From the NCBI GenBank assembly GCA_963422365.1, contig OY729426.1:64001-128000 (forward strand): a stretch of DNA of 64,000 bases. Reading direction: 5' to 3'. Source of the stretch: Nitrospirales bacterium (lineage in GTDB: Bacteria; Nitrospirota; Nitrospiria; Nitrospirales; UBA8639). Of this stretch, positions 13,417 to 63,000 are shown in pieces (positions within the stretch are counted from its first letter, which is position 1; every line of letters begins with the position of its first letter). The translations under genes and the position numbers were made by a program. The notes under the pieces are model-generated. The model saw only the letters and a list, made by a program, of their open reading frames with translations. It had not been told where the DNA came from and made no database searches.

Positions 13417-13430
13417 GCCTTGTTCTCCCT

Positions 13431-14267: not shown

Positions 14268-14333
14268 TTTCCTGCTCCTTGGATTCTTGCCTTCGACAAG
14301 ATTCAGGACAACTCCCCCACTTGTTTCTGCTCC

Positions 14334-15059: not shown

Positions 15060-15074
15060 AGTTCACCCTTCTGG

Positions 15075-15683: not shown

Positions 15684-15766
15684 GTGTCCTCGCTCCAGTT
15701 CGGTAATGCCAACATCACTAGTTTCTCAAGCAAGATATCCAATCCCGGCTATGCGTTCAGAGTCGG

Positions 15767-17626: not shown

Positions 17627-17654
17627 GTGGGATCCCCTCATCGGTGTATGATCG

Positions 17655-18557: not shown

Positions 18558-18563
18558 AATCGA

Positions 18564-19676: not shown

Positions 19677-19697
19677 AACGACTGTCTAGCCAAAACT

Positions 19698-20645: not shown

Positions 20646-20669
20646 CCGACCAATAATCCTGAAATCAGG

Positions 20670-21479
20670 TTATTTCATGTTGATAGGGTTTGGTGTCTTG
20701 ACCGAGGGATCTTTCAACGACGACAAAAAGGCCACCAGCGCATCAATCTCTTCATCAAACATCAAGTCTTTATATTTGTCTGGCATTTTGCCTTTCTTGT
20801 ACTGCTTGTCAAACCCTTCAGCCTTCCAGCTTTTAGGGTCAAGAATTTTCTCCCGGAGGGCTTCAGGCGTCATGAGATTACCGATATTATCTAACTCCGG
20901 CCCCCGCTTCTTTCCGCCTTTCCCAAAGAGTTTGTGACAGTTGTAACATTCTTGCAGCTCCCACTGCTCCTTACCAAGGGCAATCAGATCACCTGCTGCA
21001 GCCGGTGCCGTGAAAGTGTCTGTAGCTTCCCCCACGACCTGAACCCCACCGCCAAGGGTTTTTAATTGTTGCTCAATCGAGACGGCTCGCGCATTCAAGG
21101 CTTTTGCTCGTGCGATCAATTCTTCGGCTTTCCCCTGTTGGGTTCTCGCTCGACGGGCTTTCAAGACCTTTTCGATTTTTCCTTTTTCAACTTCTGGATC
21201 ATATTGCGGAAGATTGCTTGCTCCACCGACATACACTCCCGAAAGAATCAGGTAAAACAACACCAGTCCGATGATTGCCTTTGCTCCCTCAAGACGGTTC
21301 AAGGAGGGCGCATCAAGCAGGATAAACACGCAGGCGCCAAGCATCGCATAAATAAAGAACATCACCTGGAATACGAGGGGAAAGTGCGTGGCTTTTGCGA
21401 CCCCCACTAGAATAATCCCGACGAGGATTCCTAGTACGCCTTTTTTTATAATGGTTCGTGTCAAACGTTGCTCAGCCAT
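20670..21479 (-). CDS. Membrane-anchored monoheme cytochrome c (possible bc complex cytochrome c subunit)
   Basis: Three TM segments, coiled coil, CYNCH, GKMP. Confidence 0.85.
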   Translation of the reverse strand: MAEQRLTRTIIKKGVLGILVGIILVGVAKATHFPLVFQVMFFIYAMLGACVFILLDAPSLNRLEGAKAIIGLVLFYLILSGVYVGGASNLPQYDPEVEKGKIEKVLKARRARTQQGKAEELIARAKALNARAVSIEQQLKTLGGGVQVVGEATDTFTAPAAAGDLIALGKEQWELQECYNCHKLFGKGGKKRGPELDNIGNLMTPEALREKILDPKSWKAEGFDKQYKKGKMPDKYKDLMFDEEIDALVAFLSSLKDPSVKTPNPINMK

Positions 21480-21497
21480 ACTCGCATCCAACCTCCG

Positions 21498-23255
21498 TTA
21501 CTTCGCACCGGCAGGCATCGGGGCCCCTTGCGGCGACTCTGTCTTTTGGCCAGTGGTTCTTAACGTCACCACAATGGCGAAACTCACGACCAGATAAAAA
21601 ATCAAGGTGACACCCGTAATCCACCAGGCGGAATAGGCCAACGTGGGCGTAAAGGATTCCGGCGTAAAGTCAGGTACGAGGTTATATACATGGTAATATT
21701 TTCTCGTGAGGGACCGAACCGTCCCCATCAAGCCCATCGTCCAGATTGCACTAAATGCCAGAAAGATCAGGACGAACTGGGACGTGAAGTCGATTTTCCC
21801 CCAAATAATGGTTCCGCTCCGAATGGCCCGGTTATAGAGAATATAGTTGACGATGGTCAGAAAGACCAACGTAAACGCGGCCGCATTTTTCGCCGGCATC
21901 AGCGCCAATTCACTTGCCCAGGAAGGCAGTTCCAATTCTTCAGTGGCCAACGCCTGAGTCGCCACAAATCCGTGTGGCGTCATCCAGATGGCATTGGCGA
22001 CCACAATCATCAAAAATCCGACCTTGATCATGGTGAAGGACGACACGGTAAATCGTAAACCCGGAAACCTGCTCAGAATCGGCGGAAGAATGATCAGTAA
22101 CGCCAAAAAGATCAGCGACTGCCATTCCGGTGGCGGGAACATTTTCCAAGCAACCCCCATGACCGCTGGAATGAGAATCACGGCAACCATGACCAGTCCA
22201 GACATACGGACCCGCTCCACACCTTGAATCCGCTTCATACTCAGCCAGATATAATAGTTGCTGGCTAAAAAGATCAGGCCGACCATGGCGCCTTGCATTT
22301 CAAAAAACATCGAAAGTTGGTCTGCCATCATGTACGGACAGATCGAAGCATCGTAATCACACAGTTCATAGGCCAAGAGATATCCCATGAAGGGGAGAAA
22401 CAAGAGGGCACCCACACCAATCAGATTTCCTACAAACCCCATCCAGTCATAGTACGAGCGCTCTTCATCCGTCTTGGCTCCCATATACATATACGCCGCC
22501 ACAAGTCCCGCTATGAACCCACCGAACGTCACGTTTCCAACCAACCGATGGAGATTCAAGGGCATCCAGCTATAATTGGCGACCTTGTCCCACAAGCCCG
22601 CCGTTTGGATAAATTCAATCAGGGAGATCCCTTCTACGGATTTGGCAGGCGTGTTCATAAACGCCGTGGGACCATCAATCACAAACAACGTGACCGTTCC
22701 TACCACGTTCAACAAGACCCCCAAGGCAATATGTCTGGCTTTCTTTGCGCCCTTCAGAGAATCCCAGGAGTAAAAATACGTGTACAGCACAATGGTTTCG
22801 AGAATAAACAGGAGTGGATACACCAGGGCAAAGATCAGGAAAAAATGCTTGATGAGCCACGTCGTGAAATCAGGATAGGTGGCAAGCAAGACGAAAATAA
22901 ACAGCCCGCCGGTCAAGGCTGTCATACTATATAAGATCACCGTGACTTTGGTGACTTCCTTGGCTAATCGATCATACTTCGGGTCTTGGTTTTTGTAACC
23001 CAGCCATTCCGAAACCACAGCAAATATTGGGGCTCCCAGAATAAAAGCCGCAAACAAAATGTGGAGTTGGGCCACGATCCACACCCCCGTCCGATTCCCG
23101 GTATACGGAAACTCCACAGCTGGGGGAGGCGGAACCTGGGCAGAGGCGATAGCAAGCCCCCCGAGCACAAGTCCTAGCAACACAACAAGACTGCGGGTGA
23201 AGGTTTTCAAGGGTGGTGGCCCTCCTTGGTTATGACTGAATTTGTAGGGCCGCAT
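21498..23255 (-). CDS. Cytochrome bd-like oxidase subunit I (CydA-like), copy 2
   Basis: AQLHILFAAFILG, NLHRLVGN, WMTPHG; paralogous to 15767..17626; alternative TTG start at 23210 after AAGGAGG. Confidence 0.85.
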   Translation of the reverse strand: MRPYKFSHNQGGPPPLKTFTRSLVVLLGLVLGGLAIASAQVPPPPAVEFPYTGNRTGVWIVAQLHILFAAFILGAPIFAVVSEWLGYKNQDPKYDRLAKEVTKVTVILYSMTALTGGLFIFVLLATYPDFTTWLIKHFFLIFALVYPLLFILETIVLYTYFYSWDSLKGAKKARHIALGVLLNVVGTVTLFVIDGPTAFMNTPAKSVEGISLIEFIQTAGLWDKVANYSWMPLNLHRLVGNVTFGGFIAGLVAAYMYMGAKTDEERSYYDWMGFVGNLIGVGALLFLPFMGYLLAYELCDYDASICPYMMADQLSMFFEMQGAMVGLIFLASNYYIWLSMKRIQGVERVRMSGLVMVAVILIPAVMGVAWKMFPPPEWQSLIFLALLIILPPILSRFPGLRFTVSSFTMIKVGFLMIVVANAIWMTPHGFVATQALATEELELPSWASELALMPAKNAAAFTLVFLTIVNYILYNRAIRSGTIIWGKIDFTSQFVLIFLAFSAIWTMGLMGTVRSLTRKYYHVYNLVPDFTPESFTPTLAYSAWWITGVTLIFYLVVSFAIVVTLRTTGQKTESPQGAPMPAGAK

Positions 23256-23300
23256 CTTATGCGGCCAATATGCCCCAATAGAATCTGGAAATGCCCCGCG

Positions 23301-23870
23301 TTACTGTGGAGCTTCCTCAGAAGTTCCCTCGCTTGGAGGTTTACTCCCATCAGCGCCAGAGACCGCTGGAGCATCGGCCATTCCTTCAGGAACCCATTTT
23401 TTTTGAGTAACACTATATTCCATGCCTTTCAAGCCGAACGTGGCTTCATAGGCAATCACTTTCCACCGATCCTCTTCAGAAAGCTTGGATTTCCAAGCTT
23501 TCATTTTAGTGCCTTTGACCCCTTCAGAGACGCGCCAGAACCATTGGGAATCAGAGAACAATTTCATATGCTCACCCTGACGAAAATCTCGGGCACCCGC
23601 CTTAACCGGTTTTCCATCTTTCCCATGACAACTGGCGCAATTGACGTCGATATTTTCCGCACCGATAAAGATGGCTCGGCCTTGCTCGATAATGTCTGGA
23701 TTATTCCAATGGCCTTCCGGCATATGCTTATCGGCATACTCCGGTGGCGCTGGGGGTGGTGGGGCCGGTGGCTTGGCTTCCCCACAGGCTGACAATGTTA
23801 ATCCCATCGACACGACAGCAACGGCACCCCACATCTTTCGGCTCGCATCTTTCTCCATAACCCCCCCCAT
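23301..23870 (-). CDS. Monoheme cytochrome c lipoprotein
   Basis: Lipobox LSAC, Pro-rich linker, CASCH, GTKM. Confidence 0.85.
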   Translation of the reverse strand: MGGVMEKDASRKMWGAVAVVSMGLTLSACGEAKPPAPPPPAPPEYADKHMPEGHWNNPDIIEQGRAIFIGAENIDVNCASCHGKDGKPVKAGARDFRQGEHMKLFSDSQWFWRVSEGVKGTKMKAWKSKLSEEDRWKVIAYEATFGLKGMEYSVTQKKWVPEGMADAPAVSGADGSKPPSEGTSEEAPQ

Positions 23871-43204: not shown

Positions 43205-44698
43205 TCAGCGCGTCAGCGTATCCTCGACATCGGGTGGGGTGGCAGGAATCAATTCGCCTAAATGAGGATACTGATTCATGATTTGCTGTTTCATGGCCCA
43301 GGCCACCGCACGGTAGGACCAATGGCCTTTGACCCCTGACCGGAGTTGGCACATGTACTCCGCTTGGGCATAATCCATCTTAAAGACACACCGAACCTTG
43401 AAGCCAAAGGGAAGCACGTAAATCGAGGCCTCCTGATCCATGCCCCGCAACCGTTCGATATCCTGTTGAACCGCGTCCATGGCCATTTGATACTCTCGAT
43501 CCAGTTTCGCCTCATACAACGGATGAGGGATCTCATAGCCGTGGACGGTGGTAAAGTTTTGTTGGATTTGCTGGCACCGTCGATGCCGGTGCAGATCCCG
43601 CCATCCTCCAATATCCATCAACACGTCGAAGATTAAGGGATAGCCGCATCGACATTCCTTAATCAACTCGTCATAGGGACCTCGACGGCGAAAGGCCACT
43701 GCAAGGGTCTCCTGTTTTTCCTTCTCGGACCACTCCCGCACCAATTCCAAAATCCGGCGATACGGCGCATGACTGACGCGATACAACAAACTCGTGACCA
43801 ATTCATCCATCAACGAATGCGGCTCGATGAGATCAACCGGCACCACTTGATCGGTCCAAGCCGACGGCAGATCCAAACCCGCCTTGTGAAAAATTTTCTT
43901 GGCGTGCCTCGACAAATCACGATAGACCTCCGTTTGGTACTCATTGGCCTTGGCGTGACGGGCTAAGGTCGGCGCGAGCGGCTCCGCAGGTTTCCCTGTC
44001 TCACCGCCCAACGCTCCCCACACATTCGAAGGAGCTTTCGCACAGACATCTTGTAACTCCTGGCCAAGCGCCTGGAGTTCAGGAAGCTGCGTCGACAAGA
44101 ACCGGATGATTTGTTTTTCCAACGTCCGGATACTCACCACCTGTCCCACGTTCGTCGTGGTTGCCAAGGGCAACAAATACCGAGTGATATCGTAAACACG
44201 CGCAGCAAGGGTTCGACCATAATTCGCCTCGCTCATGGTCTCGGGCCTGGGAGATTGCCGTTGAAGATGTTCAAGAAGCCGATCATGAAACGTTCGATAG
44301 AGATTGAACAGACTACCGAGAATCCCGCGATAAAATGCCTCGGGTTCGGAATCCTTGATGGTTGACGGCACGTAACAGCCGGACACGGCAAAGTTTTGGT
44401 ACCGGCTGGACTTGGCCTGTCCATCCCACAGCGGTTCATCTTCCAGGCGAATGGCCGCTAATTCGGAAATGCCTTCCAGGCACACGGTCACGTGCCCAAG
44501 ATCGGCGATCGAAGCATGGCCATAGGCAAAATAGAACTGCTCCCAAAACTTTTCGGACGAGTGCCCATGTACCCACTGCAAACTGTCTTCGATGGAATCC
44601 TGAGAACGACTATATCGTGCAAGGGCATACGCCGCTTTCTCTGGCGGCATCGGAGCGAGGACGATCACTCGGCGTTTGTTTTTTTCCTCAACGGACAT
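43205..44698 (-). CDS. thyX: FAD-dependent thymidylate synthase, tandem-domain type
   Basis: ARYSRS, YGHASIAD, SSRY, RDLHRHRR; about twice the single-domain length. Confidence 0.85.
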   Translation of the reverse strand: MSVEEKNKRRVIVLAPMPPEKAAYALARYSRSQDSIEDSLQWVHGHSSEKFWEQFYFAYGHASIADLGHVTVCLEGISELAAIRLEDEPLWDGQAKSSRYQNFAVSGCYVPSTIKDSEPEAFYRGILGSLFNLYRTFHDRLLEHLQRQSPRPETMSEANYGRTLAARVYDITRYLLPLATTTNVGQVVSIRTLEKQIIRFLSTQLPELQALGQELQDVCAKAPSNVWGALGGETGKPAEPLAPTLARHAKANEYQTEVYRDLSRHAKKIFHKAGLDLPSAWTDQVVPVDLIEPHSLMDELVTSLLYRVSHAPYRRILELVREWSEKEKQETLAVAFRRRGPYDELIKECRCGYPLIFDVLMDIGGWRDLHRHRRCQQIQQNFTTVHGYEIPHPLYEAKLDREYQMAMDAVQQDIERLRGMDQEASIYVLPFGFKVRCVFKMDYAQAEYMCQLRSGVKGHWSYRAVAWAMKQQIMNQYPHLGELIPATPPDVEDTLTR

Positions 44699-44958
44699 GG
44701 AGCAAGTTTTTCTTCCGCTCTCCGACTTTATTCAACCTGCCGAAAGCGATTCACTATAGTCAGGCACATGCTCCAATCTCAAGTCGGCACGGTTTCCGTC
44801 TTGATAACGTTCTCAATAACGTGAAAAGAAAACCCTTGAAACAGGTTGCTCCGATGGCTAGACTCCCCTTTCCAATAAAAAGGATCCCACGGGACAACTC
44901 GAGACCGGGGTCGGGGCCGACACAGGAGCCGTTCCCGACAGAAGCGAAACACGCACGT

Positions 44959-46323
44959 ATGATCAAAAACGACCAACAACCCATCCATGGCCAATGGTCC
45001 TCTCGCTTAGCCTTTATCATGGCAGCTACGGGCGCTGCCGTCGGCCTCGGAAATATTTGGAAATTTCCCTATATTACAGGGGAAAACGGGGGTGGGGCCT
45101 TTGTCTTGGTCTATATCCTCTGTGTGGCTGCCTTGGGAATTCCACTGATGATGGCAGAGGTGATGCTCGGACGCCGCGGCAAACGAACGCCGGTCAATAC
45201 CATGCGAGTTCTGGCTGCGGAAACCAACGCCCGCCAAGGCTGGCAACTCATCGGGTGGTCCGGCACCTTGGCCGGCACACTGATTTTGTCTTATTACAGC
45301 GTCATCGGCGGATGGACCCTCGGGTATATTGTCCATGCAGCTACCGGTCGTTTCTCAGGTCTCAACGGAGATGGGAGCACGAGCCTCTTTGGAGACTTTG
45401 TGGGAAATCCCTTAGTTCAGGTGGGTTGGCATACGGTCTTCATGCTCATCACCATGTCCATCGTGGCCCGAGGAGTGCGGCATGGATTGGAAAAAGCCAT
45501 CACCTACCTTATGCCGGTCCTGGTTGTGCTGTTGTTCATTCTTTTGGGCTACGCCATGACCACCGGCTACTTCATGCAAGGGCTCGCCTTTTTATTCACG
45601 CCCGACTTCAGCCACTTTTCAGGCACCAGCATGCTCACGGCCCTGGGGCACGCGTTTTTCACGTTGAGCCTGGGAATGGGCACCATCATGATCTATGGGG
45701 CCTATGTTCCCGAAGACACTTCCATCGCCAGTACGTCCGTGGCCGTGGCCGTGGCCGACACGATGGTCGCCCTCATCGCGGGCATGGCGATTTTTCCTAT
45801 TGTTTTTGCCAATACCCTCACGCCCGGAGCCGGCCCGAGTCTCATTTTTGAAACCCTTCCCGTGGCCTTCGGCAACATGGCGGGCGGGACATTGTTCGGA
45901 ACACTCTTTTTTATCTTGCTCCTCGTGGCAGCCTGGACATCTTCCATTTCATTGATCGAACCGGCGGTCACCATGATGATCGAACATTTCAACATGACTC
46001 GTCACACGGCCGCCTTCTGGACCGGACTGGCCACGTGGCTATTGGGATTCGGCACGGCCTTTTCATTCAACATCTGGGCAGACGTCGAAGTTTTGGGGCT
46101 GACCTTTTTCGATCACCTCGATTTCCTCACCTCAAACCTCATGCTGCCAATAGGCGGAATCGGTATGGCCATCTTCACCGGTTGGGTGATGACCAAAAAA
46201 ATGAGCCGAGCTGAACTCGGCATGAAAAATGAAACAGGCTATTCCATTTGGCAGGTGTCGATTCGATTCATTGCCCCTCTCGCGGTTTCGATTGTCCTCC
46301 TTCACGCCATCGGCGTATTTTGA
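44959..46323 (+). CDS. Sodium-dependent transporter (NSS/SNF family)
   Basis: WSSRLAF..GAAVGLGNIWKFPY..GENGGGAF; FFTLSLG; start moved to 44959. Confidence 0.92.
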   Translation: MIKNDQQPIHGQWSSRLAFIMAATGAAVGLGNIWKFPYITGENGGGAFVLVYILCVAALGIPLMMAEVMLGRRGKRTPVNTMRVLAAETNARQGWQLIGWSGTLAGTLILSYYSVIGGWTLGYIVHAATGRFSGLNGDGSTSLFGDFVGNPLVQVGWHTVFMLITMSIVARGVRHGLEKAITYLMPVLVVLLFILLGYAMTTGYFMQGLAFLFTPDFSHFSGTSMLTALGHAFFTLSLGMGTIMIYGAYVPEDTSIASTSVAVAVADTMVALIAGMAIFPIVFANTLTPGAGPSLIFETLPVAFGNMAGGTLFGTLFFILLLVAAWTSSISLIEPAVTMMIEHFNMTRHTAAFWTGLATWLLGFGTAFSFNIWADVEVLGLTFFDHLDFLTSNLMLPIGGIGMAIFTGWVMTKKMSRAELGMKNETGYSIWQVSIRFIAPLAVSIVLLHAIGVF

Positions 46324-46376
46324 AAACCGGGCAACAAAACATTCCAGGGAAGAACCCCCTGATTGACTGTGATAGC

Positions 46377-46396
46377 GGGACGCCGTAAGGCGTCCC
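46377..46396. repeat. Perfect GC-rich hairpin (REP-like or terminator-like)
   Basis: GGGACGCC-GTAA-GGCGTCCC, no U-tract. Confidence 0.6.
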
Positions 46397-46686
46397 ATAG
46401 CGAAACGTATTAAGTACACGGCAGCCCCCCCCCATGCCCACTTGCCTCCTGAACACCAAGGGATGGAAATGGGGTATGGGTGGCGGAAGCAGTTGTAGAG
46501 CCACATCCAGAGTCAAAGCCCGGGACATGCCTTATGCGGTCAAGAATCGGTTCCATGAGTCTGTTCCAGACCCTGATTGGGGAATGGCGTCGCTACACCA
46601 AAGGAAGGAGGGCGGGCTCATTTTCCGGATTTCGATCCATTCTCTTCCCTTGCAACCATTGGTCGTTTCTCCTACCGTAGCGCATC

Positions 46687-48363
46687 ATGTCGAAAAAGCG
46701 TTTGTGGTTCTACTGCCTGCTCACGGGTACGGGGTATTCGCTTTCCGTTTCCAATTTATTGGAAGGTTTTCCCTGGGGCGTGTTCGCCTGGATTGCGTTA
46801 CTGCCCCTCCACCGGGTGCTGATCGGCGTCACAACGGGTCAAGCCTTTTTACGCGGATGGTTGACGGGATTTTTGGCGTTTACCGGCACGATGTATTGGG
46901 TCGTGATCGCGATGCATCTCTATGGTCAAGTCCCCCTCCCCATCAGCATCGTGCTCATGTTTACATTGGCGGGGTATCTGGGGCTGTACGTCGGGCTGTA
47001 TGCCTGGGGATTTATCTGGCTGGAACAACGATGGGCCACCGGCGCGTGGATCGTGGCACCCTGCTTGTGGGTCTCTCTGGAGTATGGACGCACCTACGCG
47101 TTGAGTGGACTCCCCTGGGGCCTGTTAGGTTACTCTCAATTTCAATGGCTGTCGATCATCCAGATCGCACACATCACCGGCGTCTACGGCGTGTCATTTC
47201 TCATTGTGGTGGTGAACGTCTCATTGTTTCTTCTGCTCCGTTGGGTTTGGGCAGAAAAACCGCAGAGATCCCCCCTCCTCCGGCCCTGGATTCCGCTCGC
47301 CTCATCCGTTGTGGCCATCCTCGTGGTCTGGCTCTATGGGCTGAGTCAACTGCATCTTCCTCGCTCGGAGAGCCTCACCATTGGGGTCGTTCAAGCCAAT
47401 ATCGATCAAGCGCATAAATGGGACGCAGCCTATCGCGTGGAAACGTTGGAACAATACCGCCGGCTCACAAAAACCGTCAGTCCCAAATCCGATCTGATTC
47501 TTTGGCCTGAAGCGGCCACGCCCTTTTTGTTCGAACGAAACGTAGGCTATCAATCGCTGGTGATGGAGATGATAAAGGACGCGCAGGTGCCACTGGTGTT
47601 TGGAAGTCCGGCCCTTCGGCCTCAAATCGACGGCACCCCGTCTCTGCTGAATAGCGCCTATGTTCTGACCCCCTCCAGGGGTATCACCGGGCGGTATGAC
47701 AAGCAACATCTCGTCCCCTTCGGTGAATATATTCCCCTGAAACAGGTTCTCTTTTTCCTGGACAAGTTGGTGGTCGGCATCGGCGATTTTCAGCCGGGAC
47801 CAGGCCCGACCCTGCTCTCCCTTCCACGTGGATCAGGACAACGACAGGTTCGGTTTGGTGTCGCTATTTGCTACGAGGTCATTTTTCCGGATCTTGTACG
47901 GCGACTCGCCAGCGAAGGCGCCAATTTTTTGGTCACGATCACCAATGACGCCTGGTTCAGGAAAACCGTCGCCCCGTATCAACATTTCGGGATGGTCGTC
48001 TTCCGCGCCGTTGAAAACCGTATGGCGGTTGCCCGCGCCGCCAATACCGGCATTTCCGGATTTATCGATCCGACCGGACGCATGATCACGGCCACGCCCA
48101 TTTTTACCGAACAGGCTATCACCGGATCGATTCCCCTGAGCGCGCCCTCGACGTTTTATACACGATTTGGCGATGTGTTTGCGTGGGCCTGTGTTATAAT
48201 AGCCTTGTGTTTGCTATCATTCGCTCGTTTTTTTCCCACAGACCACCCGCGGTTGACACCTGGTTTTCACCACGACGCAAAGGAGCCACGCATGCTTGAG
48301 GATATTCGAAACCGTTTGCAAGCCACCGGAGACCACATCAAAGAGTTACGGAGGCGTCTTTGA
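46687..48363 (+). CDS. lnt: Apolipoprotein N-acyltransferase; ORF ends at the prfB frameshift UGA
   Basis: [35 protein letters not shown]. Confidence 0.95.
48192..48200 (+). promoter_or_regulatory. Extended -10 promoter candidate for prfB inside lnt
   Basis: TG-T-TATAAT about 90 nt upstream of the prfB ATG. Confidence 0.5.
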
Positions 48364-49402
48364 CCTGCCTCGACTACGGAACGAACGAGAGGAACTCGAT
48401 CAAGAAAGCGCCCAACCTGATTTCTGGAAAAATTCGCAAATCGCGACCACGGTTGGACGGCGCAAAGCCACGATTGAACGAGACATCTCCCGCATCACCG
48501 ATTTTGAGCAAAGGCAGGCTGATCTAGAAGCCACGCTCGACCTCATCGGGGAAGAGGATGATGCCGAACTCGAAACCGAATTAACTCAGGGCATTCAAAC
48601 GCTGGAAACGCTTCTGGAGCACCTGCGCACAGAGCAGTTACTGGCCGGTGCGCATGATGTTCGATCCGCCATGCTGGGCATCACCCCCGGGGCCGGCGGA
48701 ACGGAATCGCAGGATTGGGCCCAAATGTTGATGCGGATGTTCGTACGCTGGGCTGAGAACAAGAAGTTCAAGGTCGGCACAATCGACATTCAACCCGGTG
48801 ATGAAGCCGGGATCAAAAGTGCCACGTTGAGTATCGAGGGCCCCTATGCCTATGGCTATTTGAAATCGGAAGCCGGGGTGCATCGTTTAGTGCGGATCTC
48901 TCCGTTTGATGCCAACAAACGTCGCCATACGTCGTTTGCCGCCGTTTCGGTGTATCCCGAACTGGATGACGAGGTTGAGGTCGAGATAGATGAAAAAGAT
49001 CTGAGGATCGATACGTTTCGTGCAGGCGGGGCCGGCGGCCAGAACGTCAACAAAGTCGAAACCGCCATTCGCATGACGCACCTTCCCACCGGAATCGTCG
49101 TGCAATGTCAGAACGAGCGCTCGCAGTTACAAAACCGCATGGGCGCCATGCGTGTCATGAAAGCGAAGTTGTTCGAGTTGGAACAACGGAAAAAGGAGTC
49201 CGAATTTCAAAACATCGTCGGCGAAAAAAAAGACATCGCCTGGGGCAGTCAAATTCGGTCGTATGTGTTCCAACCGTATCAAATGGTCAAAGACCACCGA
49301 ACGAATCAGGAATCCGGGAATATCGCGTCGGTCATGGATGGAGACCTCGATCCCTTCATTGAAGCCTATTTGAAACAGACCATAGCCGCCACGAGTTCAT
49401 AA
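48292..49402 (+). CDS. prfB: Peptide chain release factor 2, programmed +1 frameshift (48292..48360 joined to 48362..49402)
   Basis: AAGGAG RBS, ATG 48292; GGAGG-CGT-CTT-TGA-C frameshift cassette; SPF and GGQ motifs in the +1 frame. Confidence 0.96.
48350..48364 (+). promoter_or_regulatory. prfB programmed +1 frameshift site
   Basis: Internal SD GGAGG 3 nt before CTT TGA C, the canonical RF2 autoregulatory cassette. Confidence 0.93.
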
Positions 49403-49459
49403 CGACCCGGCGGGAGTCCATGGAACCGTTGGGTCTTCATTGCGATGTATTGGAATGAC

Positions 49460-50950
49460 ATGATGGATGAATCAAACGAACAACGCACGCAACGCATTCA
49501 AAAACTCGACGTGCTCAAAGCCATGGCGGTGCAGCCCTATGGCACCCGCTTTGAGACGACTCACCAGGTTGCACACCTCGTGGCGGCATATGGATCAAAC
49601 GCCAAAGACGAACTCGAGCAACAGCCAATCGACTGTCGTATCGCGGGACGCATCGTGGCGTTTCGCCGGTTCGGCAAAGCCGCGTTCGCCTCGCTTCAGG
49701 ACGGCGCGCATCGGCTCCAGGTATATTTGAAAAAGGACGTGCTCGGAGACGACGCCTTTCGCCTCTCCCAAGAATTGGATTTAGGCGATTGGATCGGGGT
49801 GGAAGGTCGGTTGTTCCGCACGAAAACCGATGAGTTGACCGTCGAAGTCCGCATGCTGACGTTTTTGTCGAAAGGACTTCGCCCCCTTCCTGAAAAGTGG
49901 CATGGCTTGACGGATATTGAAATCCGGTACCGGCAACGCTATGTGGACCTGATTGCCAACCCGAACGTCCACGCCATTTTTGAAACACGCAGCAGGATCA
50001 TCACGGGCATCCGCAACTATCTCACCGAGCAAGGGTTCCTCGAAGTGGAAACGCCGATGATGCACCTCATCCCCGGGGGGGCCACAGCCCGCCCATTCGT
50101 GACGCACCACAATTCTCTCAATACGAATCTCTATCTGCGTGTCGCGCCGGAGCTCTATCTCAAACGCTTGATCGTCGGTGGCTTTCGGCGCGTGTTTGAA
50201 ATCAATCGAAATTTTCGCAATGAAGGCATCTCGACCATCCATAATCCGGAATTCACCATGCTGGAGTTTTACCAAGCCTATGCCGACTACCGGGACCTCA
50301 TGGCGTTGACCGAAGATCTGTTCGGCACACTCGCGCGGGATATCCACGGCAGCCCCACGCTGGAGTACCAAGGGCACATGATCGACCTGACTCCCCCATG
50401 GCGCCGTCTTCCCTATTTCGAAGCCATCGTCGAGCACAATACATTCGACCGAACGGTTCTTGAAGATCAGGCGGCGGCAACAGCCGCGGCCCGACAACTC
50501 GGGTTGGAAATTCCCAAGGAGGCCTCACTGGTTGGAATCTTGAACATGATTTTTGAAGAAACCGTGGAACACCGGCTGACTCAACCCACGTTTATCACGG
50601 ACTACCCCACGGAGATCTCTCCGCTCTCGCGAAGGAAGGACACAGACCCGCACCTCACCGACCGGTTTGAATTGTTTATCGCCGGCCGTGAGCTGGCAAA
50701 TGGGTTTTCCGAGTTGAACGATCCGCTTGACCAACGCCAACGCTTTGCAATCCAAGCGTCTCAACGGGAAGCCGGCGACGATGAAGCGCATGATTTCGAT
50801 GAAGATTTCCTGCGCGCCTTGGAATATGGGATGCCTCCGACGGCGGGAGAAGGCATCGGCATTGATCGCCTGGTGATGGTGTTCACGAATCAAGCCTCGA
50901 TCCGCGACGTTATTCTCTTTCCTCAACTCCGACCGGAGAAACCGTTGTGA
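49460..50950 (+). CDS. lysS: Lysine--tRNA ligase (class II)
   Basis: [38 protein letters not shown]. Confidence 0.97.
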
Positions 50951-52934: not shown

Positions 52935-52941
52935 AACGAGC

Positions 52942-53079
52942 AAGAATCTGCCGCTGGTCGGCAAGCTGCTTAGTCATGGGCGACACCAAACCACGGCGGG
53001 CTACGCTGACCTTGCCGACGGGCACCTCGTCGAGGCGGCGGAGAAGGTCGGCGCCGTCATTGCCAGTGTGGTGCGCTGA
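52942..53079 (+). pseudogene. Tyrosine recombinase/integrase C-terminal remnant
   Basis: KNLPLVGKLLSHGRHQTTAGYADLADGHLVEAAEKVG resembles integrase box II (LLGH...TT..Y); no start. Confidence 0.75.
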
Positions 53080-53256
53080 ATCTATTCGTCAGAAATGACG
53101 AACCTGGACAAGAGAGCATTCAACATATCGAATAATGATTTTCCGAATACCTGATGGAGTCCGGCTCGCAGCCAAGATAAATCCTTCCCCTGTTGAGCAA
53201 ACGGGAATTTCTCCAGCCAATACACCAAAGCCAGCTTTACACGCTGCGTGAGAGTC

Positions 53257-53530
53257 CAACCAATCGTGCCGGCGGCACTCGGCGCGGCCAGCGGTTTTGC
53301 CTCAGTGAGAGTCCTCACTCTCTACATCAATAGCCTGCAAGTGAGTGAGCACTATGCGCGGTCGGAACTCCTGTAGCTGGTTTGTCCTCTAGCGATCTAT
53401 TGGTTAGGACGTATGGCGCTGCTTGCCAATCACGGGCTCGTTGCTGATGACCCGCTAATCTTCGCCTTGAACGACCGCACCAGTTGGCTGAACAGTGTCG
53501 GGATTTTAGCTGTTAGTGGTGGCGCTCTAA
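53257..53530 (+). pseudogene. UbiA-family prenyltransferase C-terminal fragment
   Basis: LGAASGFASVRVLTLYINS...ELL*LVCPLAIYWLGRMALLANHG...DDPLIFALNDRTS; TAG at 53374 where Trp is expected. Confidence 0.65.
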
Positions 53531-53603
53531 TGGCCAGCGGCATGAAGCTCTCTGGCCGTGGCCGTTATCCTGTGCTCAATTGTCGGGTAGAGCACCTGCG
53601 TGA

Positions 53604-53924
53604 GCCTTACGGGCGTTGGTTGACGAAAACCGCTTCGGCCTTGCCTCCCACCAGGTCGATGTCTTCATTCTGGAACCCGGCACGGATCGTTACCTCGATC
53701 GGCTCTGCGATTAAAACCCCTGCCCCAAAGGCAAACCGGAATGCAGGACACCAGGCTGCGGGAACGTCAATTTCTGGCGCCGGCATGAGGAATTCCGATG
53801 GTGGCCTGAGACCCTCGCGGACAGCCGCTCCGTCCGGCTCTTCGACCGCGCCACGGAATCGCACCGCCTCGCCGACGATGTGCCGCTTCCCTGCGACAGC
53901 AGACACGATGCCCCGTCGCAATGA
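53604..53924 (+). pseudogene. Cys-rich hypothetical protein fragment
   Basis: HQVDVFILEPGTDRYLDRLCD*NPCPKGKPECRTPGCG..., GC-rich third positions, internal TAA at 53712. Confidence 0.4.
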
Positions 53925-54197
53925 GCGATCGAGTCTCGTGGTTGGCCGATAGTCTCATGTACGGTCCAGGCTAAGATCAAGCGCGCCGTTTCCGACCGCA
54001 TCTGCGGTGGCTGGCCAGCCGGCAGCGAAGTCCCCGAGCACCATCCTGACCCGCTTCCCATCGATATCAGCCGGATCAAAGGGCTTCGCCTTGTAGAGCT
54101 TGCACCCGTAATCGGACAAAGGCGAGGCCATCAGCGGGACCGCACCAGGAGGCAGCCTCGTCGCCGGCGCTCCCGCGGCGCAGTACGCTGCCTGTGC

Positions 54198-57100
54198 CTA
54201 CCAGATCATGCGGATGGCGAGGTTCGCTCCATGCTCTGGCGTGCCGTCCCTGCTCTCGCGGCGACTGCCTTCCAGGCTCAGGTCGAGCCCCGTGCTGAGA
54301 TTGAGACGGCCGCCCACACGGTAGCGGCGACCGCCGCCGTTTCCGAACACCGCGCCGCCGTAAGGCGTGACAAGGCCCGCGCCGCCGAATGCCGGCAGGC
54401 CGTAGCCCAACTCCGCCTCGATGCGTGCGCCAGGCACATCGCCGTTCGCATCTGCCTCGCGGCCGGTCAGGCCGTCCTCCCACAGGCGCTCCATGCCGCT
54501 CCCCACCTCGCCCCAGGAGGGGGTGAGGCTCAGCGACAGGCCGCGCCCGTCCGCGCCGGGGTCGAGCCGGAGCGAACCCGATGCGCCCCATTGCCGCACG
54601 CCACCCGTGTGCGCCGCGAGCGCCCGCCCGGAGATCGCCGCAGTCAGCCCAATTTCCCTGTCGACGTAGCCCAGACCGCCGCCGATCTCGACACCGGTTC
54701 CGGTCTCCCCGTCACCGCCGTCCCAGCGCAGGCCCAGCTCCAGAGACGGCGTCAGGACTGTGTCAGGGAACAATTCGAAGTCGCGAGAGCCTTCCAGCGC
54801 CAGACGCATCCGCCAGGTCCGCACCGACAGACCCTTGATCAGGTCGCCGTTGTCGTCGACCTCGAGACGCGACCCCTGAACCTCGCTCTTCAGGTCGAAC
54901 GCCGTCGCGCCTTCCGAAACGAGCCGCCAGGCGCCGCCCGCCGCCGCCGTCAGCAGCGTCGAGTCGCTTGACTGACGGCCAGCCGCCGCATCGTTGATCT
55001 CAATCTCGCCCCTGCCGTATCCCGCCAGCGCCCACAGGCGCGAGCCGTCCGGCAGCGATAGGCCTGCATAGGGATGCACGCTCGTCATTCGGTTCTCATG
55101 CGTGCCTTTGAGCGGCGCATCGCCGCCGTTGTCGGTATAGTCGATTGAACTCTCGAACCGGGAGACCGCCACCCCAGCCCGCACGTCCTCGCCCAAAGCG
55201 GCATCGACGCCGAGATGGGCGGCGAACATGTCGCCGTCCCAGTCGACAGGGCCATCGAGCGACAGGTTCCGCCAGTCGCCTGCGCCCCAGACCGCGACCC
55301 CGCCTGACCCCGGTCTAGCGCCATCGCCGCCGTCTCCGGAGAGGCCCAGCGAGAACGACTTACCGGCCAGCGCCCGGCGCCAGGAGAAATCGCCCTCGTT
55401 CAGCGCCTGATCGTTGGCCTCCAGGAGATGTGCAAGCGATGCCAACGTCTTCGACCCCGTATTCCCCATGTCCGGCGCCACCGAGCCAAGCCGGTCCGCC
55501 ACCGCACCGGCCGTGCTGGCCGTCATGGCGCGCGCCAGCTCCGGTAGAACTACCTCGTTCACAACCCGGAGCCGCTGCCGCTTCGCCATCGCGGGGGAGA
55601 TCACTTCGATGTCGAAGGTGAGCGTGGCAGGGTCGCCGTCGGCGTCGCTCACGGTGTAGGTAAACGTTGCCTTGTCGAACACCGCTGTTGGGGTGCCAGA
55701 CAGCGTGCGTGCCGTGCTGTCGAAGGTCAGCCCGGTCGGCACGGCCGGTGACAGGCTGTAGGTCAGCGGTGCGTCGCCGCCGGTGGCCACCGGCAGTTGC
55801 AGCGTGCCGATATCAGTACCCTCGGTCCACGACTGGGCAGGGATTGCGGTGCCCTGCACGAAGGCCGGCTTGTCGCCCAGGATAACGGGGAATGTGACGG
55901 TGGTCTCGCCGGTGTTGCCTGCCTCGTCGGTGATCACGACGACCGTGTCGTGCGTATCGGGGTTGACGGTGGTTGGCCTGCCGGAGATTACGCCCGTCGT
56001 TCCGTCCAGCGCCAGGCCCGGAGGCAGGCTGCTGCCCGACTTCACCATGTAGGAGGCGATGTCGGTATCCTTCGTCGTGGGGTCGAGGTCGGCGATCGCC
56101 TGGTTCGCAATCCACGTCCCGGTCGGGTCGGTGTAGAAAACTACGGGGACGACGCCGTCCACTTTGCGCCGCGCGGACGGCACCACCGCTTCGTGATCCA
56201 GTTTGGCGTCGATGCGTATGCCGCCGCCGGCGTTGATCCAGATTTCCCCGCTGTTAAGGGCGAGCTTGTTGGCGGCGATGCTGATCCCGTCTGTGTCCAC
56301 ATCGCCAGCGTCCACCCTGTAGAAGAAGACCAGCTTCGACTCGTCGCTTTTGTCCTCGTCATAGACCGCCTGGCGGGTCCGGTTGCCGATGGTCAGTCCC
56401 ACCTTCGGCTTGCCCGTTACCATCACGCTCACGTTGAACGCGATCGCCACCTCAATCTCCTCGCCGAAGCCATACGTGTCGCCGTCCAGGGGCGCGTTGC
56501 TGAAGGAGATCGAGGACACTGCCGGCACCGACACTGTTCTGCCGTCCACCTTGCGGTTGGCGTCGGCGGCCACCGCATTGTGATCCAGTTCGGCGTCGGT
56601 GCCGTTGGTCGAGATGCTCCCGCCGTTGAGGGAGAGCGCGTTGGCGGCGATGTAGATCCCGTCTGTGTCCACATCGCCAGCCTGCACCGTGTAGAGGAAG
56701 ACCAGTGTCTTCTCCGGGGGGTCATTGGAACCCGGAGGATTATAGTAAGTCGCATACCGCTTGTCGCTGCCGATGGTCAACTCTACCCGGGGAGCGCCAG
56801 TCACCACCACCGCGATGTCGAAGACGGCCATCACTTCGATTCTCTCGCCCTGTCGGTAGGTGTCGCCGCTCGCCGGGGAGTTGTGGTAGGTGACGTATCT
56901 CACCACCGGCGCGTCTACTGCCACGCTGGCCGCCACTTCGATATCGAAGGTGAGCGTGGCGGTGTCGCCGTCGCCGTCCGTCACGGTGTAGGTGAACTGG
57001 GTCTTGCCGAGCGTCGCTGTCGGGGTGCCCGTGACCGTGCGCGCGGTTGCGTCGAAGGTCAGGCCGGTCGGCAGGGCCGGGGTCAGGCTGTAGGTCAGCG

Positions 57101-58505
57101 GCGCGTTGCCGCCGGTGGCCGCCGGCAGTTGCAGCGTGCTGATAGCCGTGCCCGCGGTCCAGGGCTGGGCAGAGATTGCGGCGCCCGACGCGAAGGCCGG
57201 CGTCAGGTCCGCCGCCACTTCGATGTCGAAGGTGAGCGTGGCGGTGTCGCCGTTGGCGTCCGTCACGGTGTAGGTGAACGAGGTCTTGCTGAACGCTGCT
57301 GTCGGCGTGCCCGTGAGCGTGCGCGCCGTTGGGTTGAAGGTCAGCCCGGTCGGCAGGGGCGTGGTCAGGCTGTAGGTCAGCGGCGCGTTGCCGCCGGTGG
57401 CCGCCGGCAGTTGCAGCGTGCTGATAGCCGTGCCGGCGGTCCAGGACGGGATAGTGATTGCGACGCCCTGCGCGAAGGCCGGCCTCGGTTCCGCCGCCAC
57501 TTCGATGTCGAAGTTGAGCGCGGCGGTGTCGCCGTCGCCGTCCGTCACGGTGTAGGTGAACTGGGTCTTGACGAGCGCCGCTGTCGGCGTGCCCGCGAGC
57601 GTGCGCGCGGTTGCGTCGAAGGTCACCCCGGTCGGCAGGGGCGTGGTCAGGCTGTAGGTCAGCGGCGCGTTGCCGCCGGTGGCCGCCGGCAGTTGCAGCG
57701 TGCTGATGGCCGTGCCCTCGGCCCAGGACTGGGCAGGGATCGATACGCCCGACGCGAAGGCCGGCGTCAGGTCCGCCACCACTTCGATGTCGAAGGTGAG
57801 CATGGCGGTGTCGTCGTTGGCGTCCGTCACGGTGTAGGTGAACGAGTTTTTGCTGAACGTCGCTGTCGGGGTGCCCGTGACCGTGCGCGCGGTTGCGTTG
57901 AAGGTCAGCCCGGTCGGCAGGGGCGGGGTCAGGCTGTAGGTCAGCGGCGCGTTGCCACCGGATGCCGCCGGCAGTAGCAGCGTGCCGATAGCCGTGCCGG
58001 CGGTCCAGGACTGGTTGACGATTGCGGCGCCCGGCGCGAAGGCCGGCGTCAGGTCCGCCACTACTTCGATGGGGAAGGTGTATCTGATGCGGTCGCCGTC
58101 GGCGTCCGTCACGGTGTAGGTGAACCGGGTCTTGCTGAACGCCGCTGTCGGCGTGCCCGTGACCGTGCGCGCGGTTGCGTCGAAGGTCACCCCGTTCGGC
58201 AGGGTCGGGGTCAGCGTGGCGCTCATCGGCAAGGGGCCGGTGACCTTTGGCAGTGGATTCGGGCCGATGTCTGCGCCCACGATCCAGGTCGTCACGGTGG
58301 TGATGGTGATGTCTCGGGTGAAGGCAAAGGCTGGCGTCAGGCTCGCCGCCACGCCAGCGAACGCCAGCAGGCCGAAAAGACCGGTCAGGAAACGGCTGGC
58401 CCGGCCGCGCCTGCATGCGCGAGGCTTCGGTTCGGCAGGCCGGCTTGCGCTCATCGTAACCGGCCTTTGGGAATGGGGTGACATACGCGTTAACTTGTTT
58501 TCCAT
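54198..58505 (-). CDS. Autotransporter adhesin with tandem putative Ig (He_PIG-like) repeats
   Basis: Signal ending PAFA; 94-aa repeats (LPTGLTFDATARTVTGTPT...TYTVTD); C-terminal beta-barrel ending in W; start near 58505/58520 (ORF-track start 58727 lies in the IS remnant). Confidence 0.88.
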   Translation of the reverse strand: MENKLTRMSPHSQRPVTMSASRPAEPKPRACRRGRASRFLTGLFGLLAFAGVAASLTPAFAFTRDITITTVTTWIVGADIGPNPLPKVTGPLPMSATLTPTLPNGVTFDATARTVTGTPTAAFSKTRFTYTVTDADGDRIRYTFPIEVVADLTPAFAPGAAIVNQSWTAGTAIGTLLLPAASGGNAPLTYSLTPPLPTGLTFNATARTVTGTPTATFSKNSFTYTVTDANDDTAMLTFDIEVVADLTPAFASGVSIPAQSWAEGTAISTLQLPAATGGNAPLTYSLTTPLPTGVTFDATARTLAGTPTAALVKTQFTYTVTDGDGDTAALNFDIEVAAEPRPAFAQGVAITIPSWTAGTAISTLQLPAATGGNAPLTYSLTTPLPTGLTFNPTARTLTGTPTAAFSKTSFTYTVTDANGDTATLTFDIEVAADLTPAFASGAAISAQPWTAGTAISTLQLPAATGGNAPLTYSLTPALPTGLTFDATARTVTGTPTATLGKTQFTYTVTDGDGDTATLTFDIEVAASVAVDAPVVRYVTYHNSPASGDTYRQGERIEVMAVFDIAVVVTGAPRVELTIGSDKRYATYYNPPGSNDPPEKTLVFLYTVQAGDVDTDGIYIAANALSLNGGSISTNGTDAELDHNAVAADANRKVDGRTVSVPAVSSISFSNAPLDGDTYGFGEEIEVAIAFNVSVMVTGKPKVGLTIGNRTRQAVYDEDKSDESKLVFFYRVDAGDVDTDGISIAANKLALNSGEIWINAGGGIRIDAKLDHEAVVPSARRKVDGVVPVVFYTDPTGTWIANQAIADLDPTTKDTDIASYMVKSGSSLPPGLALDGTTGVISGRPTTVNPDTHDTVVVITDEAGNTGETTVTFPVILGDKPAFVQGTAIPAQSWTEGTDIGTLQLPVATGGDAPLTYSLSPAVPTGLTFDSTARTLSGTPTAVFDKATFTYTVSDADGDPATLTFDIEVISPAMAKRQRLRVVNEVVLPELARAMTASTAGAVADRLGSVAPDMGNTGSKTLASLAHLLEANDQALNEGDFSWRRALAGKSFSLGLSGDGGDGARPGSGGVAVWGAGDWRNLSLDGPVDWDGDMFAAHLGVDAALGEDVRAGVAVSRFESSIDYTDNGGDAPLKGTHENRMTSVHPYAGLSLPDGSRLWALAGYGRGEIEINDAAAGRQSSDSTLLTAAAGGAWRLVSEGATAFDLKSEVQGSRLEVDDNGDLIKGLSVRTWRMRLALEGSRDFELFPDTVLTPSLELGLRWDGGDGETGTGVEIGGGLGYVDREIGLTAAISGRALAAHTGGVRQWGASGSLRLDPGADGRGLSLSLTPSWGEVGSGMERLWEDGLTGREADANGDVPGARIEAELGYGLPAFGGAGLVTPYGGAVFGNGGGRRYRVGGRLNLSTGLDLSLEGSRRESRDGTPEHGANLAIRMIW
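56935..58320 (-). repeat. Intragenic tandem array with a 282-bp period (four near-identical units plus a diverged first unit)
   Basis: ACTTCGAT anchor at 56935, 57217, 57499, 57781 and 58063; a sixth related unit near 55600-55880. Confidence 0.92.
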
Positions 58506-58632
58506 TATGCGGCCTCTCATGATGTCACTAGTTTTTGTTGAGATCATGGCGTAGATGAACACGGAACCAAAACAAAAACAAGAACAGGGTGATGCATGAT
58601 AACATAAGGTTGCTTTGCCGTTCAAAGACCAA

Positions 58633-58990
58633 AGAGTGCTCATGCTATATGGATTTGAGGCCATCAACGAGCAGTGCGAAATAGATGAAGCGGAGACCGT
58701 ATCCAGCTTATCAAAGCGCGTGAGCACCCGCCTGAACAGACGTTCGACTTCATTGACTTCTTGTAGAACTCTCGGTCATAGTCCCATGGAGCTACCCGAT
58801 TGGCCTTCGGCGGGACCAACCGGTTCAAGCCGCAGGTCAGCGACGCACCGATGGGTCTCATCGCCTGCATAGGCCCTGTCCATGACCATGGAGCACGCCG
58901 AACTCGGCAAGACAATGTTGCCCAGCAACTGATGTCTTTGCGGAGCATCTCCCGCCTGGTCCCCAGACAACGAAAACCCTGTTGCACTCT
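58633..58990 (-). mobile_element. IS5-family transposase remnant (frameshifted, truncated)
   Basis: FSLSGDQAGDAP, MDRAYAGDETH, PPKANR.APWDYDRE.YK, NEVERLFRR, TRFDKLD spread over different frames. Confidence 0.8.
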
Positions 58991-59136
58991 AATGGCTGGC
59001 GGCAGGAAACTCTGGCCGGGGCCGGTATCCGGTGCTTGATTGCCGGCTGTAGCGGCTGCTGAGCGCGAGGCGCTGCCTGGGTTGCCTGGTCACAGCGACA
59101 CCCTGATCGCCCGTGGCAACGGCAGCTCCTACGGCG

Positions 59137-59530
59137 TTGAGGTCGGCCAGCGTTGGATCCAGGTAGCGATGCGGGCGTCGAGCACGACGCTTACGCCAGC
59201 AGCTCCAGTTTCGATAGGCCCGATCCTTCTGGCGGTACAGGGAAGGTCTTGTAGGCGAGGCCGATGGAATAGCGGGAGCGGCTTTCAGGCCTCCCGCCGA
59301 CATGGCGCAGCCAAGCCATGTGCATGGCCGAGGTCAGCATCGCGAAATCCACGAGGATGGCGTTCTCCAAAACGCGCACGAGATTGCTCGGGATGGTCGG
59401 CGGCTCCAGCCAGCCGATGGGCACATACTCCCACCGCTCCGAACTCACCTCGGGAATGACCAGAAACGGCGCGGTGGGGATCGTCATGAATGCAAATTCG
59501 GTTGGAAACGATGCGAGGTTGCGGATGAGA
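59137..59530 (-). pseudogene. MmeI-like type IIL restriction-modification enzyme C-terminal fragment
   Basis: IPEVSSERWEYVPIG, LTSAMHMAWLRHVGGR, RYSIGLAYKTFP, then a stop and frameshifted VLDAR / TLADL. Confidence 0.8.
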
Positions 59531-62179: not shown

Positions 62180-62971
62180 TCAGGAGAGATAATACTGAGG
62201 GCGTCGATCTTTCACCAACTCATTGTACGGATTGATCGACTTGTTGCGGGCTTCGTTGATATCGATCTCGACTACCGCGAGTTCCGGAGCATCTGCAGAA
62301 GCCCGGGACAGAATATGACCGTTTGGTGCAATAACTTCACTTTTTCCGATAAAGGTCAGAGGTGGTTTGCCTCCTCTGGCTTCTTGACCGATTCGGTTGG
62401 CCGTAATGCCGAAGATCCGATTTTCCAAGGAACGTGTCACCATGGCATCAGGGCAGTGAGGCAGGACTAAATTCGATGGATGACACACAATCTCGGCCCC
62501 TTGTAAGACGAGAGTACGAGCGGCTTCTGGGTAGTACCAATCAAAACAGATCATGACCCCAATGCGGGCCTCGCCAATATCCCAGACCTGAAACCCTGAG
62601 TCACCCGGGCTGAAGAACAACGTTTCCTCACAAAACAAATGCGTTTTGCGGTAACACCCCAAGAACCCCGAAGGACCAACCACAATCGCCGCGTTGTAAC
62701 ACTGCCGACCGGCCCGTTCAGGCAGCCCCGCAACCAAATGCATCTGATGTTGTCGGGCAAGCTCAACGCAGGCCTGAGTCGTGGGGCCGTCCGGAACCTG
62801 TTCCGATAAATCGAGGACTTCCTCCTGATTAACAAATTGATAGCCGGTAAAGGCACATTCCGGCAGAACAAGCAGTTCGCACTCCACCGGACCCAGTCGG
62901 GAAGCAACCCGTTCAAGATTTCGTTGCACTTCTCCGAATTCAGGATGTAGTTGGAAATAGCCGACTTTCAT
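62180..62971 (-). CDS. Nitrilase/carbon-nitrogen hydrolase family protein
   Basis: E-K-C triad: LPEC, YRKTHL, ICFD. Confidence 0.9.
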   Translation of the reverse strand: MKVGYFQLHPEFGEVQRNLERVASRLGPVECELLVLPECAFTGYQFVNQEEVLDLSEQVPDGPTTQACVELARQHQMHLVAGLPERAGRQCYNAAIVVGPSGFLGCYRKTHLFCEETLFFSPGDSGFQVWDIGEARIGVMICFDWYYPEAARTLVLQGAEIVCHPSNLVLPHCPDAMVTRSLENRIFGITANRIGQEARGGKPPLTFIGKSEVIAPNGHILSRASADAPELAVVEIDINEARNKSINPYNELVKDRRPQYYLS

Positions 62972-63000
62972 CAATTGACCCTTTGAATGTCCTTCAAAAC

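Follow-up and report, generated by a model that had tools for sequence, protein, structure and literature searches.

The closest described system to the locus reported here is the programmed +1 frameshift of prfB, the gene for release factor 2 (RF2), which is known from Escherichia coli and from most bacterial phyla. In E. coli the frameshift takes place with an efficiency of roughly 30-50%. The signal has also been placed between two fused proteins, and an excerpt of one such study gives 52.7% frameshifting in B. subtilis for the prfB motif with 60-bp flanks, and about 6% in M. smegmatis for the same two-protein reporter (PMC12421855). We analysed a stretch of 64,000 nucleotides (nt) from a Nitrospirales bacterium (assembly GCA_963422365.1, contig OY729426.1, positions 64,001-128,000), here called the window, whose positions serve as coordinates throughout. 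Its prfB gene shares with the known system a 23-codon ORF0, the GGAGG motif, a 3-nt spacer, the CUU UGA C site and an RF2 body in the +1 frame. In the assembled sequence the gene immediately upstream, lnt, runs in frame into this signal. We consider it likely that a 2-nt insertion has left lnt ending at the prfB UGA, probably with two protein products, and that the arrangement is a recent, tolerated and lineage-specific by-product, not a selected device.

The lnt-prfB junction in the window

The window sequence and its list of open reading frames (ORFs) show lnt as an uninterrupted frame of 558 amino acids (aa) from ATG 46687 to TGA 48361-48363, with its own stop absent. An earlier note on this DNA had described an lnt without a stop after its last transmembrane helix, passing in frame through the ribosome binding site and ATG (48292) of prfB to end at CTT-TGA-C, and the sequence confirms these coordinates. 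The frame crosses the prfB Shine-Dalgarno sequence AAGGAG (48280-48285) and the prfB ATG (48292-48294) in phase, and its terminator is the UGA of a canonical prfB cassette, GGAGG-CGT-CTT-TGA-C (48350-48364). The in-frame run-on past the prfB ATG is 72 nt long and ends at the recoding site. The note's length for a fused product, 904 aa from 558 + 346, is also correct, as the +1 frame from 48362 to 49402 holds 346 codons followed by TAA. A run of seven T that it had placed at about 48228-48234 is present and marks exactly where the frame departs from that of its relatives.

Both proteins are readily identified. The 558-aa ORF scores 352.1 bits against the equivalog model TIGR00546 (cut-off 132.9, 4.5e-105), with residues 61-465 matching positions 2-394 of the 395 in the model. 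An LNT_N domain at residues 27-178 and a CN_hydrolase domain at residues 232-485 are followed by one terminal hydrophobic segment, and the alignment to the solved Lnt structure 6nwr_A covers residues 34-516, includes this segment and stops at 516. The WPE, K-HLVPFGE and ICYE motifs are identical between the window protein and 6nwr_A, and we take the conserved WPE and K-HLVPFGE motifs to hold the catalytic Glu and Lys positions. An excerpt of PMC5500888 names Cys387 as the catalytic cysteine of Lnt and describes the E. coli enzyme as having eight helices, both termini in the cytoplasm and a periplasmic domain bridging H7 and H8. By analogy the last helix of the window protein, which follows the periplasmic CN-hydrolase domain, would bring the chain back to the cytoplasm. 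The RF2 body scores 505.3 bits against TIGR00020 (cut-off 370, 8.1e-152) and contains PCRF and RF-1 domains, with the SPF and GGQ motifs visible in the translation. The window holds a second CN_hydrolase gene (264 aa, 1.9e-46), which is soluble and lies 14 kb downstream of lnt on the minus strand (62183-62974).

Promoter-like sites were not found in 46300-49600, nor were terminator-like matches between lnt and prfB, and the overlap of the two genes across the genus, described below, implies that they are co-transcribed. Because lnt has no stop ahead of the cassette, ribosomes that complete it must reach CUU UGA C with GGAGG three bases behind. The earlier note had argued that these ribosomes meet the prfB switch, which seems a reasonable deduction from the layout. 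Those terminating at the UGA would release a 558-aa Lnt with a foreign cytoplasmic tail of 42 aa, made up of a 19-aa linker and 23 RF2 residues, and those shifting +1 would yield a predicted Lnt-RF2 chimera of 904 aa. The ratio of the two would be set by the level of RF2, and free RF2 would still be produced from prfB's own start. We infer that ribosomes coming from lnt would shift as efficiently as those from prfB and with the same dependence on RF2, and that the tail, and RF2 within the chimera, would be cytoplasmic and tethered to the membrane. Both the tailed Lnt and the chimera are presumably harmless. A more specific version, in which a third to half of Lnt is made as the 904-aa membrane-anchored chimera, in a ratio to 558-aa Lnt set by the RF2 level, and in which the arrangement has arisen twice, is tentative and we hold it with somewhat less than even confidence.

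Relatives and the origin of the open frame

The junction was extracted from 43 loci, 38 from genomes of the same genus and five from a second family of the order, and lnt and prfB are adjacent in all of them. We refer to the window's genome as G000, to its sister species as G001 and to other genomes of the order by further G-numbers. Going by the names of related database proteins, the genus sits among metagenome-assembled genomes (MAGs) labelled 'Nitrospira sp.' and close to 'Candidatus Nitronereus'. The prfB frameshift cassette is kept with identical spacing in all 43 loci. The commonest junction in the genus is an overlap, found in 28 of the 38 genomes including G001. Here lnt lies in the -1 frame relative to prfB and stops at the TGA inside ATGCTTGA, giving an 8-nt overlap with prfB codons 1-3, a stop 5 nt after the ATG, and a tail of the pattern FARF..PSA.DTRFSTRRKGARHA. 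Such a genus-wide overlap suggests that prfB is coupled to lnt through termination and reinitiation. Eight genomes have earlier lnt stops, with all three frames represented (Table 1), and two, G000 and G011, are in frame and free of stops across the junction. An order-level scan of 401 genomes returned 447 matches, and of the 150 listed, those of G000 and G011 are the only ones to extend over the entire junction query free of stops.

The junction alignment across relatives that the earlier note had called for thus reveals no conserved in-frame overlap. The note had also held that its reading would fail if all relatives stopped before the prfB ATG with no selection on the linker. Taken literally this is not what we see, since in most relatives the lnt stop comes 5 nt downstream of the ATG, but it holds in sense: a stop is present in the relatives, and the final stretch of the linker lacks protein-level selection, as set out below.

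In many genomes of the second family among the matches listed, lnt shares the frame of prfB, and a single stop immediately ahead of the ATG is all that separates the two genes. In four extracted loci of this family (G034, G037, G025 and G028) the separating stop lies 21-24 nt ahead of the prfB ATG. A single stop-codon change in these genomes, or natural read-through of the stop, would yield the same run-on as in the window.

The departure of the window from its sister can be traced to one position. Where G001 reads T6CC the window reads T7CCC, a +2 gap at 48234-48235 on which the genus alignment (gap columns 86-87) and BLAST agree. The insertion falls just after the last Lnt membrane helix and shifts lnt into the prfB frame. 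Translation of the other registers reveals that the ancestral one is still open after the T-run, with a G001-like tail up to the TGA at 48297-48299. The earlier note had spoken of a loss of the lnt stop; the stop codon in fact persists, and lnt has been displaced from its frame by the 2-nt insertion. An ancestral frame that is still open, with a tail still resembling that of G001, indicates that the insertion is recent.

One base fewer at the tract leads into the third frame, with the tail PQTTRG and a stop at 48254. We rejected a single homopolymer error, T6 read as T7, as insufficient to explain the junction, since one base fewer lands in this third frame and the difference from the relatives is 2 nt. 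The TGA at 48254 was ruled out as the ancestral lnt stop, which is the TGA in ATGCTTGA.

The second stop-free genome, G011, reached this state by a different route, with a 1-nt deletion at the homologous T-run and a 3-nt deletion further on. In G022 the same tract has gained 1 nt (T8), and the third-frame stop is used. Judged from these sequences, the T-run is a hot spot for length change. We built a quick maximum-likelihood tree of Lnt and RF2, for which only Shimodaira-Hasegawa-like approximate likelihood ratio (SH-aLRT) support was calculated. It places G000 as sister to the overlap-type G001 (SH-aLRT 99), and G011 as basal in a separate clade of seven genomes whose other members are of the overlap type (five) or use a frame-1 stop (one). 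Since both the clades and the indels differ, the read-through in G000 and G011 would represent independent events on terminal branches. Its frequency does not exceed chance expectation. The two genes abut or overlap throughout the order, so about one in three indels that change the frame within the short lnt tail can be expected to put lnt into the prfB frame, where no stop occurs in the roughly 30 codons ahead of the ATG.

We also asked how far the Lnt tail is constrained as protein, using column entropy at lnt codon positions 1, 2 and 3 in the 21 overlap-type genomes that align without gaps, a small and related sample. The first 12 tail codons (-75 to -40) have weak coding periodicity, with mean entropies of 0.46, 0.20 and 0.61. 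Over the final 39 nt ahead of the prfB ATG, lnt-frame periodicity was absent in these 21 genomes (0.25, 0.43 and 0.30), and the same stretch is well conserved as nucleotides. Conservation of this kind, without lnt codon periodicity, fits constraint from the prfB leader and Shine-Dalgarno sequence and not from the Lnt peptide. The missing periodicity and the use of three frames for the tail within the genus imply that the extreme C-terminus of Lnt is free to vary. Protein-level constraint on the linker was accordingly not found, either over the last 39 nt in the 21 relatives or across the three frames of the genus. Together with the end of the 6nwr_A match at residue 516, the stretch lacking periodicity indicates that the Lnt tail is dispensable.

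Rival readings of the junction

Several observations weigh against a tolerated, genuine run-on. The difference lies within two adjacent homopolymers, T7 and C3, the classic place for long-read indel errors, and G000 and G011 are both single-contig genomes. No second assembly carrying the window's Lnt tail was found. Neither the window's 558-aa ORF nor the open frame of G011, as cut, has an exact match in a collection of 15 billion proteins. In a search for Lnt proteins with the window's tail, none of 43 matches (from 88 candidates) covers the tail, the best covering 72%; this search relies on shared 5-residue words and is weak evidence of absence. Two of our own analyses are weak points, as the codon-position statistic comes from 21 related sequences and counts as supporting evidence only, and the tree support comes from the quick version only. 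Two independent origins among 38 species could also reflect recurrent selection instead of neutrality. Finally, G051, which has a new frame-0 TAA 6 nt before the ATG, could represent the repair of a read-through, and hence a cost of reading through.

The first four of these observations speak for a misassembled tract. Its true form would be T6CC or another length, lnt would stop at ATGCTTGA like its counterpart in the sister species, and read-through would not exist. We regard this as improbable. Such an artefact needs two extra bases rather than one, and the rest of the window gives little sign of errors of this type. About 55 kb could be aligned to G001 at 90-93.5% identity with 106 gaps, 30 of them in Pfam-supported genes. 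Within these genes, gaps that are not a multiple of three are locally compensated or fall at the end of an ORF (examples in Table 1), and the sole exception is the +2 in lnt; the gene bodies contain no other uncompensated indel of 1 or 2 nt. Of 57 further ORFs scanned in the window, 36 have Pfam families and none appears split, and 17 other homopolymers of at least 7 nt within the 38 Pfam-supported genes keep their frame. The genome is 98.58% complete, and the length of the tract also varies in an assembly of 160 contigs, that of G022 with its T8. An assembly error at the lnt T-run is unlikely on this evidence, and we infer that the assembly is correct at this point.

A second alternative accepts the sequence and sees in it a selected device, in which the in-frame state is kept so that the Lnt C-terminus, or a membrane-tethered pool of RF2, depends on the RF2 level and couples lipoprotein maturation to termination. 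The state did arise twice in one genus, the cassette and the prfB Shine-Dalgarno sequence are intact, and the C-terminus of E. coli Lnt is cytoplasmic in the excerpt of PMC5500888, a compartment where RF2 could fold. We nevertheless find this reading highly improbable, because 36 of the 38 genus genomes, the sister species among them, lack the state, the order-level matches add no further case to G000 and G011, both of which are single terminal branches, and the intact ancestral tail frame marks the event as young. Database ORFs that join Lnt and RF2 domains are moreover all singletons among the matches listed. The earlier note had left the choice between coupling and a tolerated change. Our comparisons favour its second option over coupling, given two independent cases in 38 genomes and an overlap-type sister, and they lend no support to a selected tie of lipoprotein maturation to termination. 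The absence from the sister, the low frequency in the genus, the origin on terminal branches, the intact ancestral frame and the unconstrained tail together favour a tolerated accident.

Slippage of RNA polymerase, an established phenomenon on homopolymers, or of the ribosome on U7, adding one U or skipping two bases, would restore exactly the ancestral register and tail (one U fewer gives PQTTRG), so that Lnt would mostly terminate at ATGCTTGA, with little translation continuing to the frameshift site, but this too is very unlikely, as reports of efficient slippage mostly concern runs of at least 8-9 and the 17 other runs of at least 7 nt in ordinary window genes mean that frequent slippage would harm many proteins.

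If the sequence is right, the tolerated run-on amounts to a natural experiment in which an important polytopic membrane enzyme relies on the RF2 recoding site for its termination. A programmed frameshift site would then decide the fate of the ribosomes of two genes and give rise to a membrane-tethered pool of release factor, and the locus would indicate how far cells put up with run-on translation into a recoding signal and with a release factor held at the membrane. For regulation the run-on is probably of little consequence, because the relatives do without read-through. The ratio of 558-aa to 904-aa product would serve as a natural reporter of frameshift efficiency in an uncultivated Nitrospira-like lineage. 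The locus is also a trap for annotation, since automatic gene callers will give Lnt a length of 558 aa, with the N-terminus of RF2 as its final 23 residues.

Other features of the window and relation to known systems

The features of the junction are collected in Table 1 together with the early stops of the relatives and examples of gaps relative to G001.

Table 1. Features of the lnt-prfB junction and related positions (window coordinates; negative values count from the prfB ATG of the genome named)
Feature	Position	Strand	Basis or remark
lnt ORF as assembled, 558 aa	46687..48363	+	ORF list; stop is the prfB frameshift UGA
Lnt proper	residues 1-516
New 19-aa linker	residues 517-535
23 prfB ORF0 residues	residues 536-558
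Codons of last Lnt membrane helix, residues ~497-516, ending FARFF at the T-run	48175..48234	+	translation; downstream of CN_hydrolase 232-485
T7CCC tract (T7 at 48228-48234) with 2-nt insertion relative to sister (T6CC)	48228..48237	+	alignments
Third-frame TGA that would end lnt with the tail PQTTRG if the tract were 1 nt shorter	48254..48256	+	G022 uses this stop
prfB Shine-Dalgarno AAGGAG, here read as lnt codons (in ...AKEPR)	48280..48285	+	conserved in genus alignment
prfB ORF0, ATG + 22 codons, then UGA	48292..48363	+	sequence
ATGCTTGA, with ancestral lnt stop TGA 48297-48299 overlapping prfB codons 2-3	48292..48299	+	still present, outside the lnt frame
prfB +1 frameshift cassette: SD-like (Shine-Dalgarno-like) GGAGG (48350-48354), spacer CGT, CTT TGA C (48358-48364)	48350..48364	+	sequence
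RF2 body, prfB +1 frame, 346 codons + TAA, SPF and GGQ motifs	48362..49402	+	translation; PCRF + RF-1; TIGR00020
lysS, next gene in the lnt-prfB-lysS row	49445..50950	+	tRNA-synt_2 2.4e-94; tRNA_anti-codon
Early lnt stops in prfB frame (frame 0)	TAA -6 (G051); TGA -39 (G050); TGA -57 (G023); TGA -102 (G048)
Early lnt stops in third frame (frame 1)	TGA -38 (G022); TAA -74 (G006); TGA -104 (G052)
Early lnt stop in ancestral frame (frame 2)	TAG -4 (G016)
Compensated gap, +1/-1	45372/45380		versus G001
ORF-end gap, +38	30239		versus G001; drawn 5' end of ORF

Upstream of lnt, an ORF for an SNF-family transporter (44362-46320) has about 200 open codons ahead of the start of its Pfam match at residue 210, and its true start is probably much further in than drawn. 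A run of nine C lies at 46425-46433, in the spacer upstream of lnt. On the minus strand, 12367-23870 holds a dense respiratory cluster with two genes for cytochrome bd-like subunit I, several for cytochrome c, and EB_dh-like, cytochrome b and Rieske genes, a gene content that we take to be characteristic of Nitrospira-type electron transport. At the 3' end of one of its cytochrome c genes (23304-23870), a cluster of gaps relative to G001 that are not multiples of three (-20, -2, -2 and -2) occupies 23318-23377. Counting a -1 at 23859 and a sixth gap, the net difference in this gene is -36, and the register of its tail differs from that of the sister. Downstream of prfB and lysS, the region 52935-59504 has no collinear match in G001, only a 330-bp match at 75%. 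It includes a 1509-aa gene on the minus strand (54201-58727) with He_PIG, Big_9 and cadherin-like Ig repeats, and looks like a species-specific insertion of a surface protein.

Joined Lnt and RF2 sequences do occur in databases. A search for long RF2-containing proteins gave 231 matches, and among the 120 listed LNT_N, CN_hydrolase, PCRF and RF-1 are found together in P0027, P0033, P0042 and P0073, and CN_hydrolase with RF2 domains in P0003, P0049 and P0109. Each of these seven ORFs is represented by a single member sequence, and RF2 also appears among these matches in similar isolated fusions to domains of its neighbours, such as SecA and LysS. Unlike the window's lnt, the database Lnt-RF2 ORFs lie in the frame of the RF2 body (+1), leaving the frameshift site unused. 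Most of them cross, by eye, a stretch of lnt that is rich in Arg, Pro and His and looks out of frame. In P0003 an intact last Lnt helix is followed directly by the RF2 body. We rejected a natural family of Lnt-RF2 fusions, as these ORFs are singletons in the RF2 body frame with, in most cases, a garbled junction, and are better seen as sporadic run-ons. Full-text literature searches pairing Lnt or lnt with RF2 or prfB found no description of a gene upstream of prfB whose frame ends at the recoding site.

The genus as a whole has an ordinary junction. Its ancestral state, the 8-nt ATGCTTGA overlap, belongs with the ATGA-type stop/start overlaps of packed operons, here in the row lnt-prfB-lysS. 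The junction in the window differs in having no normal stop near the start codon and instead a 72-nt in-frame run-on to a recoding site. In this it resembles the prfB frameshift reporters, where, in the excerpt of PMC12421855, an upstream ORF enters the cassette in frame and gives both a termination and a fusion product. Unlike those engineered constructs it sits on a natural chromosome, with a polytopic membrane enzyme as the upstream partner and RF2 itself as the downstream one. The run-on would plausibly give a natural Lnt-RF2 chimera. What sets it apart from the established autoregulation of prfB is that ribosomes from another gene, lying upstream, enter the switch in frame, and the switch would decide the C-terminus of Lnt as well. 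None of the elements taken singly, prfB cassette, lnt-prfB-lysS row or stop/start overlap, is new, and what the window adds to them is an upstream gene that terminates on the prfB recoding site.

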